Source of the DNA: an uncultured delta proteobacterium
GTDB lineage: Bacteria; Desulfobacterota; Binatia; UBA9968
DNA length: 64,000 nt
Assembly (NCBI GenBank): GCA_963804165.1
Contig: CAWDPO010000045.1
Coordinates: 32,001-96,000, forward strand
Direction of reading: 5' to 3'
The notes under the pieces are model-generated. The model searched no databases, had not been told where the DNA came from, and saw only the letters and a list, made by a program, of their open reading frames with translations. Each line of letters opens with the position of its first letter. The stretch's first letter is position 1. The translations under genes and the position numbers were made by a program. Positions 10,157 to 17,329 of this stretch are shown here, piece by piece.

Positions 10157-12394
10157 TTACATTCGTCGCTTTTCTCTCAACGCGCTGTAAATTGTTTCCG
10201 CCTTCACCGGCAGCTCGAACAGACGCACGCCGATCGCGTCGGCGATGGCGTTGGCAATCGCCGCCGGCGGCGCGTTGTTGGCGAACTCGCCAATCGGCTT
10301 GGCGTTGTGCGGGCCGACGCCGCCTGCCGACGCCACCAACACGGTTTTCAATTCGAACAGATCGGCGATTGACGGCAGCTTGTAATCACCGAGATTACTA
10401 TTCGTTACCCGGCCTTGATCGATGACAATCTCTTCCATCAACCCCTGGCCGACGCCCATCACCGCGGCGCCGTCGATCTGGCCTTGGTGCGCCGTCGGGT
10501 TGATAATCGTGCCGACATCATGCGCGGTGACCATGCGATGCAGTTTCACCGCGCCGGTCTCCGGATCGACTTCGACTTCGGCGACTTGAGCGCAGATGTA
10601 AGAAAACTCGTCGGGTGCGCGATAGTCTTCATAGACGGTGACTTGCAGCGGCTCCGTCGCTTGAGCGATGACACGGCGCAGCGCCACTTGTTGCCCGGGA
10701 TCTTGGCGTAGCGAAAACTTGTCGCCGTCGAAGTCAATTTCAACCGCGCGGCATTCCAGCATGCGCGCCGCTTGGTCGAGTAATTTGTCGCGCAGCTGGT
10801 CGCAGGCTTTGACCATGGCGTTGCCCGCAACATAGGTCATGCGGCTGGCGCGCATGCCGCCATCGCGGGGCGCCGTGTCGGTGTCGCCGATGACGACGTG
10901 AACGTGATCGATAGCGGCTTTGATTCGATCGGCGACTAGTTGGCGCAAGATGGTATGCGTGCCCGAGCCTTGATCGATGCTCGGGCTGATAATTAAATAA
11001 CTGCCATCTGCCTCGGCGGTGAGAATCACGCCGGTGTCGCCACCGCTAATATGGCGGCCCGAGAGCGCGATGCCGCGGCCATGATTGCGCTTCTTCGGTT
11101 TTTTCCAATCAGCGGCATCGAGCGCACCTTGCAACACCTCGCGAAAACGCACGTCCTTCAATTCTTGACCGACAGCGTCGGTTTCGCCTTCGCTGAGAAA
11201 ATTCTTTAGGCGAAACTCCGCGGGGTCCATTTTCAACTCCTTGGCGATAATATCGGTGTGGCAATCCACCGCGAACGCCGTGGCCACCGCGCCGGGGCTG
11301 CGATAGTAACCGCCGGGAACCGTGTTGGTGTAAATCTGCATGAACTCAACGTCTGCGTGTTCGATGCGATACTGGCCGCCGGCATAGTGCCAAGTCGCCA
11401 GCGAAGTATTGGATTTGAGCGCGCCGTAGCCGCCACTGGCGTGCAGCGCCCGCATTTTGCGCGCGACGATCGTGCCATCGCGCTTTACGCCGCTTTTGAT
11501 CGTGATCACCGTCGGATGCGCCGGATTGCTCGCCGAGAGTTCCTCGGCATAGCTCATGACGATCTTTACCGGCCGGCCGGTCTTTTGCGCGAGAAAATAA
11601 AGTACCGGGAGATCGACGCCGTCGCCCTTGCCACCGAATTCGCCGCCGACGTTAACGGGATTCATGCGGATGCGCTCCTCGGGAATCGATAAACATTTCG
11701 AAAGTTGGCTGCGCACACCGAAGGGATTCTTAACCGACGCCCAGACTTGAATGCGCCCATCGGCTTCGATGGCGACCGTCGCCGCATGCGGTTCGAGGTA
11801 GCCTTGATGCCGCGCGGGAATGTTAAAAGTATGCTCCAATACCAGATCCGCTTCGTGAAAACCTTTTTCCACGTCGCCCTTTTTCCATGAGAGCCGCGTC
11901 AGACCGTTATGCAGATCGGCGGCGAGAATATTCTTTGGCGCGCCGTCATAATCCGCCACGTTGTCATGAAGCTTCGGCGCCGACGACGCCATCGCTTCGA
12001 GCGGATCGAACACAGCCGCCAGCGCTTCGTAGTCGACGTCGATCAGATGAATCGCTTCTTCCGCGGCGTCGATCGTCTCCGCCGCCACGGCTGCAACCCG
12101 ATCGCCGACGAAACGAACCTTCTCCCAACACAAAACCGGCATGTCGCGAATCTGCTTGCCAATCAGGAAGCCTTTGACTTCCTCTCCGGTGATGATCGCC
12201 TTCACTCCAGGAACTTTTTTCGCCTGGGAGGTATCGATGCGCCGAATGAGCGCATGCGGATGCGGACTGCGCAGGATTTTTGCCCATAGCAAGCCGGCAA
12301 GCTTCACGTCTGCGGCATAAACCGTTTGGCCGCTCACTTTGTCGCTACCTTCAGCACGCGGCACCGCGGTGCCTACTGTTTTTACTTCGTTCAT
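10157..12394 (-). CDS. xanthine dehydrogenase family molybdopterin-binding large subunit
   Basis: ILRSPHPHA, VGGEFGGK, AHDVGTIINP, GQIDG, KPIGE. Confidence 0.93.
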   Translation of the reverse strand: MNEVKTVGTAVPRAEGSDKVSGQTVYAADVKLAGLLWAKILRSPHPHALIRRIDTSQAKKVPGVKAIITGEEVKGFLIGKQIRDMPVLCWEKVRFVGDRVAAVAAETIDAAEEAIHLIDVDYEALAAVFDPLEAMASSAPKLHDNVADYDGAPKNILAADLHNGLTRLSWKKGDVEKGFHEADLVLEHTFNIPARHQGYLEPHAATVAIEADGRIQVWASVKNPFGVRSQLSKCLSIPEERIRMNPVNVGGEFGGKGDGVDLPVLYFLAQKTGRPVKIVMSYAEELSASNPAHPTVITIKSGVKRDGTIVARKMRALHASGGYGALKSNTSLATWHYAGGQYRIEHADVEFMQIYTNTVPGGYYRSPGAVATAFAVDCHTDIIAKELKMDPAEFRLKNFLSEGETDAVGQELKDVRFREVLQGALDAADWKKPKKRNHGRGIALSGRHISGGDTGVILTAEADGSYLIISPSIDQGSGTHTILRQLVADRIKAAIDHVHVVIGDTDTAPRDGGMRASRMTYVAGNAMVKACDQLRDKLLDQAARMLECRAVEIDFDGDKFSLRQDPGQQVALRRVIAQATEPLQVTVYEDYRAPDEFSYICAQVAEVEVDPETGAVKLHRMVTAHDVGTIINPTAHQGQIDGAAVMGVGQGLMEEIVIDQGRVTNSNLGDYKLPSIADLFELKTVLVASAGGVGPHNAKPIGEFANNAPPAAIANAIADAIGVRLFELPVKAETIYSALREKRRM

Positions 12395-12553
12395 ATCGTT
12401 ACGTCCTTTGTCGTTTGCAAATTTGCAATCTGGCGGGCAAATCAAATTGTGTAAATGTTCGGCTATTAATACGCCGGAGCGCCTAACGTCAAGGCCGGCG
12501 TTGAGCAGGGAATGACTCAAATTGAAACCAGATCCTTCACGGAGTTTATCCTG

Positions 12554-14154
12554 AGAGCCTGTGAAAAAATATCCAAATAACGGCCGCTTCTACACTGGCG
12601 CGAGCCGAGTGCAGGGTTTTAGAAAAATCGTCGTTGCCGGCGGCGCAATTGTCCTCCACCGAGTACAACGCGAGACTGGGAGGCGTGGTGCTCGCAGTGG
12701 TGTTTTGCGTCTGTGCGCTGGTTTTTGCCAAGAGGTGTTACGCCGGTTGGATGAGCGTCACTGCCCGCATCAAGTTGTGCGCGAGGGCGTACCACAACGA
12801 CACCGCTTTGACCTTGTTAAGCCCGCGCACCAAAAACTGGCTAAGCCCGCGGCCGCGCGCAATGGCGTTCACACATTCAGCGGTGGCGGCGCGTTGCTTG
12901 TAAATCTCCTTAGCCGCCTCAGTGCCCATGCGCTGGCGCCACTGGGCAAGCGCCTGGCTGTCATCGGGCAGCGGCACATACGGATCACGGCTGGAGTTTC
13001 TAGGGCGGCGCACTGGAGCATAGACGATAGTGCCCCCTCTGTGGGCATCTTCAATGTCAGCATCGTTGGCAAAACCACCGTCGACCAACCACTCGGCGGG
13101 ACGTTGTTTATAGCGCCGTTGGACTTGCTCGAGCATCGGGGAAAGCTGGCCCCCATCGCTGCCGCAGCTGTTTACTTCGACTCCGACAATGATCTGGCTT
13201 TGGGGAGTGCTCGCCAACTGCACGTTGTAGGCAGGGCGAAAACCGCCGTCCGCCATCTTCATCACTCGCGCCTGAGCATCGGTGCTCGATGCCCTCGGCT
13301 CGCTGCGCTTTCGGTATTGCTCCTCGCTCTCGTTCTCTTTTTTCTCCCCCTTTTTCTTGTTCTTTTGCTTCTCGACCTCAGCCAATTGCTCCAGCGCTTG
13401 GGCCAAGCGCGCTTCACGTTCCTTGCTCGCTCGCTCCCGGGCCGCGCACCGACGCCGGTTGCTAACATGAGGATCGGCATCGATTTCGTCCTTGAGCGCT
13501 TGGACTTGCGCTCGCGCTTGCTTAAGACACAACTCCAATGTCGAGCGGCGGCGAAAAGATCCCGCCCCCGCACTGGCACGCACCCGTATCCCGTCCTGCG
13601 CCACGCACTCCAGCCGCACCAAACCCTTATTGACCAACACCGCGACACTTTCGCTGAGCAGCTCGTCGAGCACATCTACCCGGGCGCAGCGGAAATCCGA
13701 CAACGTGTGGTGGTTCACATTTACCCCACCACAGATCCATCGATACGCGTCGTGCGTCTCGCTCAATCGTTCGATTTCCCGCGCGCTCCCCACTGCATCC
13801 ACCGTCGCGTACAGCCACAGCGCCATCAGAATCTTAGGGTCAATGGCTGCTCGACCCGCCCGACCTTCTACCGAGCCGATCTCGGCATACAGCGCCGACA
13901 AATCCAGTCTCTCCACGAATGCCCACACGTTGCGCACCGCATGCTCCGGCCCTACCGTGGCCTCAAGGTCCACCGGCCGAAGCGCAATCTGATCACGCTG
14001 CGCTGTCAACACCCTCGGCGCTCCACTCGGGGGTGGCCTCTCGGACCGAGCCGCACTACTCTCTGGCATACACGGAAAAATAAAAACTTGTTCATCCATG
14101 AATCGACAATCTCATACGAGCGCTTGCTTGGCGAGTGATTTTTTCACAGGCTCT
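12554..14154 (-). mobile_element. IS1182-family insertion sequence
   Basis: perfect 17-bp terminal inverted repeats AGAGCCTGTGAAAAAAT (12554-12570 and 14138-14154); flanking duplication TGA or CTGAG depending on the exact end chosen. Confidence 0.92.
12738..14099 (-). CDS. IS1182-family DDE transposase
   Basis: GRAAIDPKILMALWLYA, SAREIERL, NHHTLSDFR, AQDGIRVRASA, LVDGGF, YKQRAATAE. Confidence 0.93.
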   Translation of the reverse strand: MDEQVFIFPCMPESSAARSERPPPSGAPRVLTAQRDQIALRPVDLEATVGPEHAVRNVWAFVERLDLSALYAEIGSVEGRAGRAAIDPKILMALWLYATVDAVGSAREIERLSETHDAYRWICGGVNVNHHTLSDFRCARVDVLDELLSESVAVLVNKGLVRLECVAQDGIRVRASAGAGSFRRRSTLELCLKQARAQVQALKDEIDADPHVSNRRRCAARERASKEREARLAQALEQLAEVEKQKNKKKGEKKENESEEQYRKRSEPRASSTDAQARVMKMADGGFRPAYNVQLASTPQSQIIVGVEVNSCGSDGGQLSPMLEQVQRRYKQRPAEWLVDGGFANDADIEDAHRGGTIVYAPVRRPRNSSRDPYVPLPDDSQALAQWRQRMGTEAAKEIYKQRAATAECVNAIARGRGLSQFLVRGLNKVKAVSLWYALAHNLMRAVTLIQPA

Positions 14155-14503: not shown

Positions 14504-14947
14504 ATGAGTTGGCAAGACAACCTTATCGAGACTCCTCAGCAGATTCGCGATTTGATCGAGCACACCAAGCGCATCGCGGTGCTCGGCATCAAAACCGAAG
14601 CGCAAGCCGATCAACCCTCGGTCTATGTGCCGATGTATCTGCAGAAGGCGGGTTTCGAAATTATTCCCGTGCCGGTCTATTACCCGGAGGCCACGGTGAT
14701 TCTCGGTGAAAAAGTCTATCGCAAGTTAATCGATATTCCCGGCGACATCGACATGATCGATGTCTTTCGCCGCTCCCACGATGTCGCCGGTCACGTCGAC
14801 GACGTCCTCGCGAAGAAACCGAATTCAGTTTGGCTCCAATCGGGCATCCGCAACGACGCCGCGGCGGAGCTCTTCGCCAAAGCCGGCATCAAGGTCGTGC
14901 AAGATCGCTGACTGATGGTCGATCACCGGCGGTCCGCCGGTAAATAA
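14504..14947 (+). CDS. CoA-binding protein (YccU-like); candidate selenoprotein with in-frame TGA at 14909-14911 (ends at 14911 if TGA is a stop)
   Basis: IAVLG, IDMIDVFRRS, VWLQSGIRN; KVVQDR-TGA-LMVDHRRSAGK-TAA matches the family C-terminus VVxDRC(L/I)xVEH; hairpin at 14925-14941. Confidence 0.85.
14925..14941 (+). promoter_or_regulatory. putative bacterial SECIS hairpin
   Basis: ACCGGCG-GTC-CGCCGGT stem-loop with GGUC 20-23 nt after the TGA. Confidence 0.65.
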
Positions 14948-14950
14948 ATT

Positions 14951-14977
14951 GTAGGAGCGACCGGCCGGTCGCCCTAC
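14951..14977. repeat. GTAG-type REP
   Basis: GTAGGAGCGACCGGCCGGTCGCCCTAC. Confidence 0.7.
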
Positions 14978-15837
14978 GCAGCCAACCGCTGCGCTTTCAG
15001 TTGCCGCGCGATGAACGCTTTGATCCTTTCATAAGCACGGTCCGTCTGTGGACTCGGCTTGGCAACCCATCGATGCTCGGCGCCTTGGAACACCTCGAAT
15101 TCGCATTCGCCGCCGGCCGCCTTGTAAGTGGCGGCGAAGCGCTCTTGTACTGCAGGCAAAACATTGTCATCCAGTTCGCCCTGCAGGATATACATCGGCG
15201 GTAATGAAACCTTTTCGCCGCGCTCGAGGATCTTCTGTGGATTGCCTTCGTGGATGGTCTCCCAGGGATTAAAATAAGTTTTGCTGTTCTGGATCATCTC
15301 TTGCCACTGCCTCCGTTCCGCTTGCTGGAAGCGAGCGAATGGGTCGCTAACCGGTGAGCGCACCACGAGGTAGGGCAAAGTCGCGTCGACATTGGGCGCC
15401 TCCGGCAAAGCGTGCGCGTTATAGCGCGGATCGTGCGGGCGCATGGCGCATAATTCAATTTCGTGACCGCCGCTCGAGCTGCCCAGTGCGGCGACGGTAG
15501 CCGGATCGCCGTTCCATTCTCGCGCCTTCGCTTTGAGCCAACGAACGCCATAGTTGGCGTCCTGTACCGAAGCCGGATAAGGCGCTTCCGGCGCGCGGGT
15601 CAGGTCGATGGCGACGACTAAAATACCGCTCCGCGCCAGACTTTCATCCATCGGCGCATTGGCGGTGCGGTCTTGATTGTTCCAGGCGCCGCCGTGCAGG
15701 TCCAACAACACCGGAAACGGCCCATCGCCCTGCGGCTGATAGACCAGCGCCATCAGCTGCCGCGCCGGCGCGCGACGAAACTCAGTATCCCAAACCTTGA
15801 TTTCAAATCGGCCCAACGGATCGTATGCAATTGTCAT
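14974..15837 (-). CDS. alpha/beta hydrolase (HSL/GDXG family)
   Basis: LHGGAW oxyanion motif, GSSSGG nucleophile elbow, GELDD and AEH. Confidence 0.9.
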   Translation of the reverse strand: MTIAYDPLGRFEIKVWDTEFRRAPARQLMALVYQPQGDGPFPVLLDLHGGAWNNQDRTANAPMDESLARSGILVVAIDLTRAPEAPYPASVQDANYGVRWLKAKAREWNGDPATVAALGSSSGGHEIELCAMRPHDPRYNAHALPEAPNVDATLPYLVVRSPVSDPFARFQQAERRQWQEMIQNSKTYFNPWETIHEGNPQKILERGEKVSLPPMYILQGELDDNVLPAVQERFAATYKAAGGECEFEVFQGAEHRWVAKPSPQTDRAYERIKAFIARQLKAQRLAA

Positions 15838-15878: not shown

Positions 15879-16742
15879 TCACGCCGCCAGGCGCTTCGCT
15901 TTCAATTGCCGCGCGATAAACGCCTTCACCATTTCATGGGCGCGATCGGTTTGCGGACCAGGCCCACGCACCCATAGGTGTTCGCAGCCGGCGAAGACTT
16001 CATATTGACACTCCCCGCCGGCGGCTCGATAGGACGCGGCGAATTTTTCCTGCACTGCCGGACGAACATTGTCGTCGAGCTCGCCTTGCATGATCAGCAG
16101 CGGCACCAACGTCACTTTTTCGCTGCGATCGAGGATCTCCTGCGGGTTGCCGTCGTGGATGGTATCCCAAGGATTGAAGTAGTTCTTGCTGTTTTGCACC
16201 ATCTCGTGGCGGCCTAATTTTTCAGCGTTCAAGTAACGGGCGTAAGGATCGCTCACGGGCGAGCGCGTCGCGACGTAATTGAGCGTCGCATCGAGCTGCG
16301 GAGCTTCCGCGAGTTTATGCACGCAATAATAAGGATCGCTCGGCCGCATGGCGCAGAGCTCGATTTCGTGACCGCCGCTCGAGCTGCCGAGCGCACCGAT
16401 CGTGGCCGGATCGCCGTTCCATTCCGCCGCTTTGTACTTCAGCCATCGGACACCATAGTTGGCGTCTTGCACCGATGCGGGATAGGGCGCCTCTGGCGCG
16501 CGAGTCAAGTCGATCGCCACGACGAGCACACCGCTTCGGGCCAAACTCTCGTCCATCATGGCGTTGGCGCTGCGGTCCTGGTTGTTCCAGGCGCCACCGT
16601 GTAAATCCAACAGCACGGGGAACGGTCCACCGCCTTGCGGTTGATAGACTCGCGCCATCAGCGTCCGCTTGGGCGCGCGGCGAAACTCGACATCCCAAGC
16701 CTTAAAATCGAAACGAGCTAAAGGATTGTATGCAACGGCCAT
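15879..16742 (-). CDS. alpha/beta hydrolase (HSL/GDXG family), tandem paralog
   Basis: same motifs and highly similar to the neighbour; GAAGGAGG RBS before MAVAYNP. Confidence 0.9.
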   Translation of the reverse strand: MAVAYNPLARFDFKAWDVEFRRAPKRTLMARVYQPQGGGPFPVLLDLHGGAWNNQDRSANAMMDESLARSGVLVVAIDLTRAPEAPYPASVQDANYGVRWLKYKAAEWNGDPATIGALGSSSGGHEIELCAMRPSDPYYCVHKLAEAPQLDATLNYVATRSPVSDPYARYLNAEKLGRHEMVQNSKNYFNPWDTIHDGNPQEILDRSEKVTLVPLLIMQGELDDNVRPAVQEKFAASYRAAGGECQYEVFAGCEHLWVRGPGPQTDRAHEMVKAFIARQLKAKRLAA

Positions 16743-16759
16743 CGGGGTATCCTCCTTCA

Positions 16760-17329
16760 TCAATTAGACGTCGGCGTTTCTCCAACTTTCCAGATGTACA
16801 GCGTGCGTGATTCCGCATAATCCGAACCGTCTTCGGGAGGCTTGACGTATTCGATACGGTTGGGCTTCCAATCGTCGATGTCGAAATCATGAGCGATCAC
16901 GCGCGATCCGGGTTTTAATTGCTGCAGCTTCGGACGCAGTGCGTTGTTAAACCATTTGAACATATAGAGCGTCACCACCGTCGCCTCGGAAATATCGACG
17001 GTCAAGCCGTCCTGGGCGCGGAATTCGACTAGAGTGCTGACGCCTTCTTTCACAGCGTTTTCACGCGCCTTGGCAACCAATTCCGCGTTTAAATCGACGC
17101 CGACGCCGCGGATGCCATACTTCTTCGCCGCTTCGATGACGACGCGCCCATCGCCGCTGCCCATGTCATACAAAATATCGCCGTTTTTGATCTCGGCAAC
17201 TTCGAGCATTTTGTGAACGACATGCATCGGCGACGGCACGAAAGGGATAGTGTCCTGCGCGAAAGTCACGCGGCAGAAGGTCGCCATCAGCGCGCTGAGA
17301 AGTAAAACCCTGGTGCAGCCCTTTACCAT
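16760..17329 (-). CDS. class I SAM-dependent methyltransferase with predicted signal peptide
   Basis: PFVPSP, YDMGSGDGR, ATVVTLY, LKPGSRVIAHDF; hydrophobic leader ending TFA-Q. Confidence 0.85.
   Translation of the reverse strand: MVKGCTRVLLLSALMATFCRVTFAQDTIPFVPSPMHVVHKMLEVAEIKNGDILYDMGSGDGRVVIEAAKKYGIRGVGVDLNAELVAKARENAVKEGVSTLVEFRAQDGLTVDISEATVVTLYMFKWFNNALRPKLQQLKPGSRVIAHDFDIDDWKPNRIEYVKPPEDGSDYAESRTLYIWKVGETPTSN

Follow-up and report, generated by a model that had tools for sequence, protein, structure and literature searches.

A candidate selenocysteine codon at the conserved cysteine of a CoA-binding protein family in an uncultured delta proteobacterium

Does an in-frame TGA near the 3' end of a gene for a small coenzyme A (CoA)-binding protein stop translation, or is it read as selenocysteine (Sec)? 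The question is raised by the gene at positions 14504 to 14947, on the positive strand, of a 64,000-nucleotide stretch of DNA from an uncultured delta proteobacterium (G000:C45:32001-96000); "the window" below means this whole stretch. The source genome, G000, comprises 7.5 Mb in 46 contigs and is 81% complete. A first-pass annotation, made from the letters of the window, had proposed that the TGA specifies Sec and that a hairpin just downstream acts as a selenocysteine insertion sequence (SECIS). We compared the locus with its relatives, and the comparison indicates that the UGA very likely encodes Sec at the one conserved cysteine position of the family.

Results

Translation starts at an ATG (14504) and reaches, through the codons AAG GTC GTG CAA GAT CGC, an in-frame TGA at 14909 to 14911. 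The frame then continues as CTG ATG GTC GAT CAC CGG CGG TCC GCC GGT AAA and closes with a TAA at 14945 to 14947. With U at the TGA, the full coding sequence (14504 to 14947) specifies a predicted 147-residue CoA-binding selenoprotein that ends in KVVQDR-U-LMVDHRRSAGK, has Sec as residue 136, and aligns with its orthologues over residues 1 to 147. Gene callers, in contrast, end the open reading frame (ORF) at 14911, giving a product of 135 amino acids. The spacer between the TGA and the hairpin (CUGAUGGUCGAUC, 14912 to 14924) begins with C, so that the codon stands in a UGA-C context. The SECIS-like hairpin ACCGGCG-GTC-CGCCGGT follows at 14925 to 14941, with its 5' arm at 14925 to 14931, the loop GUC at 14932 to 14934, and its 3' arm at 14935 to 14941; GGTC (14931 to 14934) falls at +20 to +23, counted from the A of the TGA. 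Frame, hairpin, and spacing are all as the first-pass annotation had described them. Taken alone, an 11-codon open extension past a TGA is unremarkable. The evidence beyond chance for a Sec gene is comparative, and none of it comes from the single sequence.

Sequence matches place the read-through product in the YccU/YneT/TT1466 family of CoA-binding proteins, with a single Rossmann-like domain. Its match to the Pfam family CoA_binding_2 (PF13380) scored 110.1 bits (cut-off, 22.8) and covered residues 22 to 141 and profile positions 1 to 115 of 116. Since the match extends to residue 141, the domain continues through the TGA. No specific NCBIfam model matched the protein; the sole hit, to an acetate-CoA ligase model, scored 16 bits where the cut-off is 1200, a chance level. 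The closest solved structures were those of TT1466 (1IUK, E value of 1.1e-26, residues 11 to 143), 2DUW (2.7e-20), and PH1109 (2D59, 7.6e-17). At the site aligned with the TGA all of these solved relatives carry Cys, inside the motif V-V-x-D-R-C-L-M-V-E-H (TT1466, VVADRCLMVEHKR; 2DUW, VVMDRC; PH1109, IVANRCMMREHER).

Thermus TT1466 (1IUK/1IUL), Klebsiella 2DUW, Pyrococcus PH1109 (2D59/2D5A), Escherichia coli YccU, and Bacillus subtilis YneT are all single-domain CoA-binding proteins of PF13380. The window protein shares with the TT1466 type the same domain along its entire length and the C-terminal V-V-x-D-R-C-L-M-V-E-H motif, and CoA binding is predicted for it from this likeness. The difference lies in the Cys codon: TT1466-type proteins carry Cys, whereas the window gene and 57 distinct relatives carry UGA with a downstream hairpin. 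The TGA occupies the column of the invariant DRC cysteine, aligned with TGC or TGT of the Cys homologues. The window protein has no other Cys, and none is found upstream of the motif in 173 of 178 close homologues.

To map the distribution of the two states, we examined 61 genomes from the order to which G000 belongs, with G000 itself counted. An orthologue was present in 35 of them, with TGA at the column in 23 and TGC or TGT in 12. Nineteen of the TGA genomes belong to the window's genus (g1) and four to a genus of another family (g9), for which some complete genomes exist. Homologues examined outside the order had Cys in every case. Among 400 further genomes across the phylum, 38 contained a homologue (E ≤ 1e-25), all with Cys and no stop. 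The best 80 loci in species-representative genomes comprised 3 with TGA and 77 with Cys, and the nearest records among them were metagenome-assembled genomes titled delta proteobacterium, Candidatus Binatia, or Syntrophobacter sp.; the best 80 metagenome loci divided into 41 with TGA and 39 with Cys. In a set of 143 loci, 117 had Cys at the column and all others had TGA. The TGA is therefore not unique to one assembly, and the codon opposite it is always TGC or TGT.

Protein databases reflect the same codon in another form. Of the best 120 protein clusters, 97 have ..VQDR as their exact C-terminal end, 22 extend to full length and contain the DRC Cys, and one is a fragment. The 97 truncated clusters represent a systematic cut at the Sec codon. 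In the set of 120 (P0002 to P0121), these 97 are annotated as 135-residue proteins, and those with a name are called CoA-binding protein or uncharacterized protein.

The coding frame persists past the TGA. LMV(D/E)HRR is found there in every sequence, followed by a divergent tail, and a true stop lies 10 to 13 codons past the UGA in all 53 unique Sec forms (TAA in 35, TAG in 9, and TGA in 9). The expected conservation of the downstream frame was thus observed. Because the true stop is itself TGA in 9 of the 53, UGA is not reassigned genome-wide and still terminates translation.

We then compared synonymous entropy, codon by codon, between 49 unique Sec forms of the main lineage and 121 Cys forms. 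Upstream of the UGA, at codons 121 to 135, the Sec forms showed 0.4 to 1.5 bits. At codons 137 to 145 their entropy was close to 0, with the exception of D140 (0.83 bits), where GAT and GAC are freely used. Counts in the Sec forms were 47/49 for CTG, 49/49 for GTC, 48/49 for CAC, 49/49 for CGG at two positions, 45/45 for TTC, and 48/48 for GCC. The Cys forms, by comparison, had 0.9 to 2.2 bits at the codons matching 137 to 145, and 4 to 6 codons were in use at the spacer positions, where synonymous sites are nearly fixed in the Sec forms. Synonymous sites over the hairpin are nearly frozen, and solely in the TGA forms.

Stem pairing was counted at six stem pairs in 39 distinct 39-nucleotide sequences of the main lineage. 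The hairpin was kept in all 39. Its pairs were formed in 99.1% of cells, and each of two single changes gave a G-U wobble. Two of the 39 sequences had the closing pair opened, with GGUCG or GGUCA loops; if the closing G-C of the window hairpin is opened in the same manner, the apex reads GGUCC. The main-lineage stem extends from +17/18 to +32/33 with a loop of GUC, GUU, GUA, or GGUCN, which always starts with GU and is preceded by G. In the 61-nucleotide fold of the region, the hairpin is the centroid structure.

How closely does this element resemble an established SECIS? Criteria of the bSECISearch type describe a stem-loop just downstream of the UGA whose apical loop opens with a G some 16 to 37 nucleotides from that codon, and the window stem-loop has this position and this apical G. 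With the U of UGA as base 1, GGUC occupies bases 23 to 26 in the window and bases 22 to 25 in fdhF of E. coli K-12, a difference of one base, in agreement with the fdhF-like apex distance that had been proposed. The source genome's own formate dehydrogenase alpha gene (fdhA) also has GGUC at 22 to 25, in the hairpin GUCCCC-GGUCU-GGGGAC. Like fdhF and this fdhA, the window gene has a UGA followed, within the coding sequence, by a G+C-rich stem capped by GGUC. Unlike them, it has a stem formed by a perfect helix of 6 to 7 bp with a 3-nucleotide loop and without an evident bulged U or conserved lower helix, and its UGA lies only 11 codons before the stop.

The source genome encodes SelA, the SelB wing domain, SelD, and one tRNA-Sec (anticodon tca). 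The first-pass annotation had made its reading depend on selA, selB, selC, and selD, and all four were found, selB by its wing domain. In addition to the gene studied here, fdhA contains one in-frame TGA, as does selD, in the motif KAAG-U-AAK. The selD, selB, and selA genes lie side by side at G000:C16:139949-144114 (loci L001 to L003), and a candidate hairpin with a GUU loop is located about 37 nucleotides downstream of the selD TGA. Across the order, SelA was found in 56 of the 61 genomes. Two genomes in the set are unpublished, and no claim hangs on either alone: G005 (locus L012) is counted among the 23 TGA genomes and contributes one row to the tree and alignment and one entry to the codon table, and G035 is counted in the SelA tally only.

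In the four g9 genomes, TGA at the same column is followed by another perfect hairpin, GGUCGCC-GGC-GGCGACC, which differs from that of the main lineage and begins at +20. For a SECIS comparison within this second lineage, a search for formate dehydrogenase in G053 and G059 returned nothing at E ≤ 1e-60, and selD was used instead. In the second-lineage genomes, selD has the hairpin GGUGCAG-GUC-CUGCACC, in which G-GUC-C caps the stem.

In a tree built by a quick method under the LG+G4 model with the Sec column excluded, 178 distinct proteins (121 Cys and 57 Sec) require at least three changes of Sec/Cys state. The tree contains one Sec clade of 53 sequences, which is sister to a Cys clade and has two Cys forms (L007 and L173) nested within it; the four g9 Sec forms are nested among g9 Cys forms. 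This topology makes two independent origins of Sec likely, but they are not proven. Forcing all 57 Sec rows into one clade lowered the log likelihood by 82.6, and the approximately unbiased (AU) test did not reject that arrangement (p = 0.067); moreover, the tested group had been named after the tree was seen.

In the nested Cys forms L007 and L173, the stem is retained and the GGU of the apex has become GCU. Within the window's genus, only the genome that carries locus L007 (G027; also L070 and L173) has a Cys codon at the column. This genome is 92% complete and yielded no match to SelA, the SelB wing, or SelD; since the three sel genes are clustered in G000, their absence may come from a gap in the assembly. 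The Sec trait may have been lost in G027 and Sec then replaced by Cys.

Residue 140 (14921 to 14923) varies among these groups. LMVDH is found in all main-lineage Sec forms, and LMVEH both in the Cys revertants nested among them and in the sister Cys clade; LMVDH returns in more distant Cys forms, from records titled Pyrinomonadaceae, and the g9 Sec forms are mixed. The choice between D and E at this residue may reflect either the RNA (a pyrimidine at base 15) or the protein.

Contigs assembled from four RNA libraries contain the TGA and hairpin region of relatives unchanged, and one of these contigs spans the interval corresponding to 14875 to 14973. They are a weak hint of expression, not proof of transcription. 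A search of sequencing runs found none that contained at least half of the sampled words.

The gene is flanked by genes for a molybdenum hydroxylase subunit, an alpha/beta hydrolase, and a methyltransferase, which are syntenic in relatives. A DDE transposase ORF (DDE_Tnp_1_6, DUF772; 12738 to 14099, negative strand) separates the molybdenum hydroxylase gene (10157 to 12520, negative strand) from the selenoprotein gene. Because these two genes adjoin without a transposase in relatives, the ORF looks like a recent insertion of an insertion sequence, just upstream of the promoter region of the selenoprotein gene. On the other side, two tandem alpha/beta hydrolase genes (BD-FAE / Abhydrolase_3) occupy 14974 to 15837 and 15879 to 16763, both on the negative strand; the two are 76% identical to each other, and related loci have one copy. 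Where the selenoprotein and hydrolase genes converge, a palindrome (GTAGGAGCGACCGG / CCGGTCGCCCTAC, 14951 to 14977) separates them and includes part of the stop codon of the hydrolase gene. Its 16-nucleotide core occurs four times in the genome, and a similar sequence is found 3' of the gene in several relatives. It may belong to a class of small repeated palindromes, or it may terminate transcription in both directions.

Discussion

Recoding of UGA136 as Sec is very likely on the comparative evidence. Considered as a whole, the segment from 14504 to 14947 is best explained as a genuine selenoprotein gene, a conclusion that we hold with good confidence. The proposal of the first-pass annotation is supported by the sel genes, the pairing of TGA with Cys codons, the kept frame, and the frozen synonymous sites, and the findings that could have overturned it did not materialize. 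In the mechanism we envisage, SelB with Sec-tRNA(Sec) would bind, at UGA136, the hairpin that begins 13 to 14 nucleotides downstream and presents its G-G-U apex at an fdhF-like distance. Sec would be inserted and 11 further codons translated up to the TAA. The residue would take the place of the family's only conserved cysteine, in a product without any other thiol.

Several observations weigh against this reading. Breaks elsewhere in the gene are present in three of the 23 TGA genomes (G018, split in two frames; G019, an extra TAA; and G025, split). Another genome with the TGA form, G009, gave no SelA or SelB-wing match and only a fragment of selD, at a contig end. The hairpin overlaps coding sequence, and folding of the 61-nucleotide stretch yielded a z score of -0.74, with 46 of 200 shuffles as good. 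An Rfam scan of the hairpin region (E ≤ 10) returned only three unrelated families at chance level (E values of 3.6 to 9.5). Compensatory double changes were seen at none of the six pairs of the main-lineage stem in the 39 sequences, and without covariation part of the conservation of the hairpin could reflect close kinship. The covariation test is itself uninformative because the stem hardly varies: the observed values were equalled in 500 of 500 shuffles. Of the two signals anticipated for the hairpin, conservation was obtained, in the stem as well as in synonymous sites frozen in TGA forms only, and covariation was not. The support for the hairpin is constraint, not covariation.

Could the UGA be a real stop? 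The functional product would then have 135 residues, and the hairpin would be an element of the 3' untranslated region, either a terminator or a stabilizer. This would agree with the 135-amino-acid gene calls that dominate the protein clusters (97 of the best 120) and with a hairpin conserved without covariation. However, the sequence past the TGA encodes the C-terminal motif of the family, CLMV(D/E)H(R/K)R, as in TT1466, and its frame is kept to a stop 10 to 13 codons on in every one of the 53 unique sequences. The truncated product would lack an invariant residue that is Cys in all 117 non-TGA loci of the 143, and no U-tract follows the hairpin; we consider termination at this codon extremely unlikely. 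Alternatively, selenium might play no part in the read-through: a near-cognate tRNA for Trp or Cys, or tRNA-Sec mischarged with Cys, could decode the UGA, so that the protein would carry Cys or Trp. UGA-C contexts are leaky in bacteria, and Cys is inserted at Sec codons under selenium limitation in other systems. Such read-through would nevertheless leave unexplained the fixed GGU apex at the fdhF distance, the full Sec machinery, and the Cys codon in the genome in which sel genes were not found, and we judge it very unlikely. The remaining explanation, a pseudogene lesion or a TGC-to-TGA error of sequencing or assembly, draws on the three TGA genomes with further breaks in the gene. Its probability is negligible given that the same TGA recurs in 57 distinct proteins, 76 to 92% identical to the query, from independent assemblies in which the gene is otherwise intact.

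If UGA136 is indeed read as Sec, what might the residue do? A study of B. subtilis spores reports that YneT (135 amino acids) is covalently modified with CoA at Cys126, in the peptide TVIMDLC126IK (PMC8127865). Most catalogued prokaryotic selenoproteins are described as homologues of thiol oxidoreductases, as carriers of redox motifs, or as having presumed redox functions (PMC13188914). From the single thiol or selenol site of the window protein, the CoA modification of YneT, and the usual redox use of Sec, we infer a reversible Se-S bond with CoA. The selenol would adjoin the thiol of bound CoA and cycle via an Se-S-CoA mixed bond, and the protein would be a CoA-dependent one-selenol redox protein. 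Candidate roles include CoA thiol-disulfide exchange, removal of CoA from proteins, and CoA-dependent reduction of peroxides or disulfides. We put the chances of a CoA-linked redox role at about even. Two points tell against it. The YneT peptide fits the same V-x-x-D-x-C motif, but the correspondence is by motif and not by full alignment. The selenoprotein gene is monocistronic, with neighbors that are divergent or convergent and not in the same operon, so that their orientation provides no functional clue.

Sec could also be inserted without its selenol acting on the CoA thiol. It might then serve as an acyl-transfer nucleophile that attacks acyl-CoA thioesters, as a metal ligand, or as a carrier of persulfide or perselenide. 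The family has no assigned function, no partner gene or assay indicates redox chemistry, and the YneT modification could be a non-specific oxidation of an exposed cysteine (PMC8127865). On the other hand, redox motifs or presumed redox roles prevail among the catalogued Sec proteins (PMC13188914), and the residue is the sole thiol or selenol of a protein whose one known ligand bears a thiol. Chemistry other than on the CoA thiol therefore appears rather unlikely.

Two kinds of known proteins can be compared with the proposed CoA-linked selenol. In the Sec-containing CoA-disulfide reductase (TIGR03385, dependent on flavin adenine dinucleotide, motif UGxP) listed in Table 1 of PMC13188914, the redox residue likewise acts on the CoA thiol, so selenium and CoA redox chemistry already co-occur in bacteria. 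That enzyme differs from the window protein in its unrelated flavoprotein fold and its length of about 440 residues. The source genome was searched for such a reductase, but the best match fell short of the family cut-off and was divided between two reading frames, and it was rejected as support. This CoA-disulfide-reductase-like locus (G000:C43:23579-24903; L239 and L240) scores 304 and 135 bits with TIGR03385 against a cut-off of 579, and its split, near profile position 115 to 120, could reflect a frameshift, an assembly error, or another pyridine nucleotide-disulfide oxidoreductase. By analogy, one-Cys peroxiredoxins and glutathione peroxidase-type selenoproteins resemble the window protein in having a single Sec or Cys and no resolving cysteine. 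Because the protein contains no resolving cysteine, an external thiol would have to resolve the oxidized form. Unlike these types, the window protein has no thioredoxin fold, and the resolving thiol proposed for it is its own bound CoA. We know of no peroxidase activity in the CoA_binding_2 family.

More tentatively, the whole COG1832/PF13380 family (YccU, YneT, TT1466, and PH1109) could consist of CoA-specific one-Cys or one-Sec oxidoreductases. If so, the invariant residue would cycle via a mixed bond to the CoA that the protein itself binds, in de-CoAlation or as a CoA-dependent peroxidase, and two independent recruitments of Sec at one residue would have revealed the redox character of the family.

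The first-pass annotation had not recognized a classic selenoprotein family here, and the catalogues agree. Table 1 of a 2026 review, which covers 119 prokaryotic selenoprotein families and subfamilies, has no PF13380 entry and no CoA-binding, YccU-type entry (PMC13188914), just as NCBIfam has no specific model. The main texts on deep-Sep (PMC12013277) and BSepDB (PMC13326102) do not mention CoA, YccU, or COG1832, although their supplements may list the family under another name. Our literature searches found no mention of the YccU/YneT/TT1466/PH1109/PF13380/COG1832 family as a selenoprotein. The Sec form is very probably a new selenoprotein family within a well-known kind of system.

The history of the locus suggests how a selenoprotein can arise, namely from a conserved Cys near a free C-terminal tail able to evolve a SECIS-like hairpin. 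Sec would have been recruited at the DRC cysteine in two lineages, which was possible because the CLMV(D/E)H block precedes a freely variable tail at a distance suited to a hairpin. Sec was apparently gained twice in this way, and it reverted to Cys once, in a genome in which no sel genes were found. The Sec form is common in metagenome data, accounting for about half of the best 80 metagenome loci (41) and for the 97 of the best 120 protein clusters that are cut at the TGA. The resulting annotation error is systematic: gene calls of 135 amino acids omit the putative catalytic residue and the C-terminal helix motif. Sec usually replaces a redox-active Cys, and the pairing of Sec with Cys at the one thiol that this family conserves hints at redox chemistry, probably on CoA. 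This lead agrees with the CoA modification reported for YneT at the same motif (PMC8127865).
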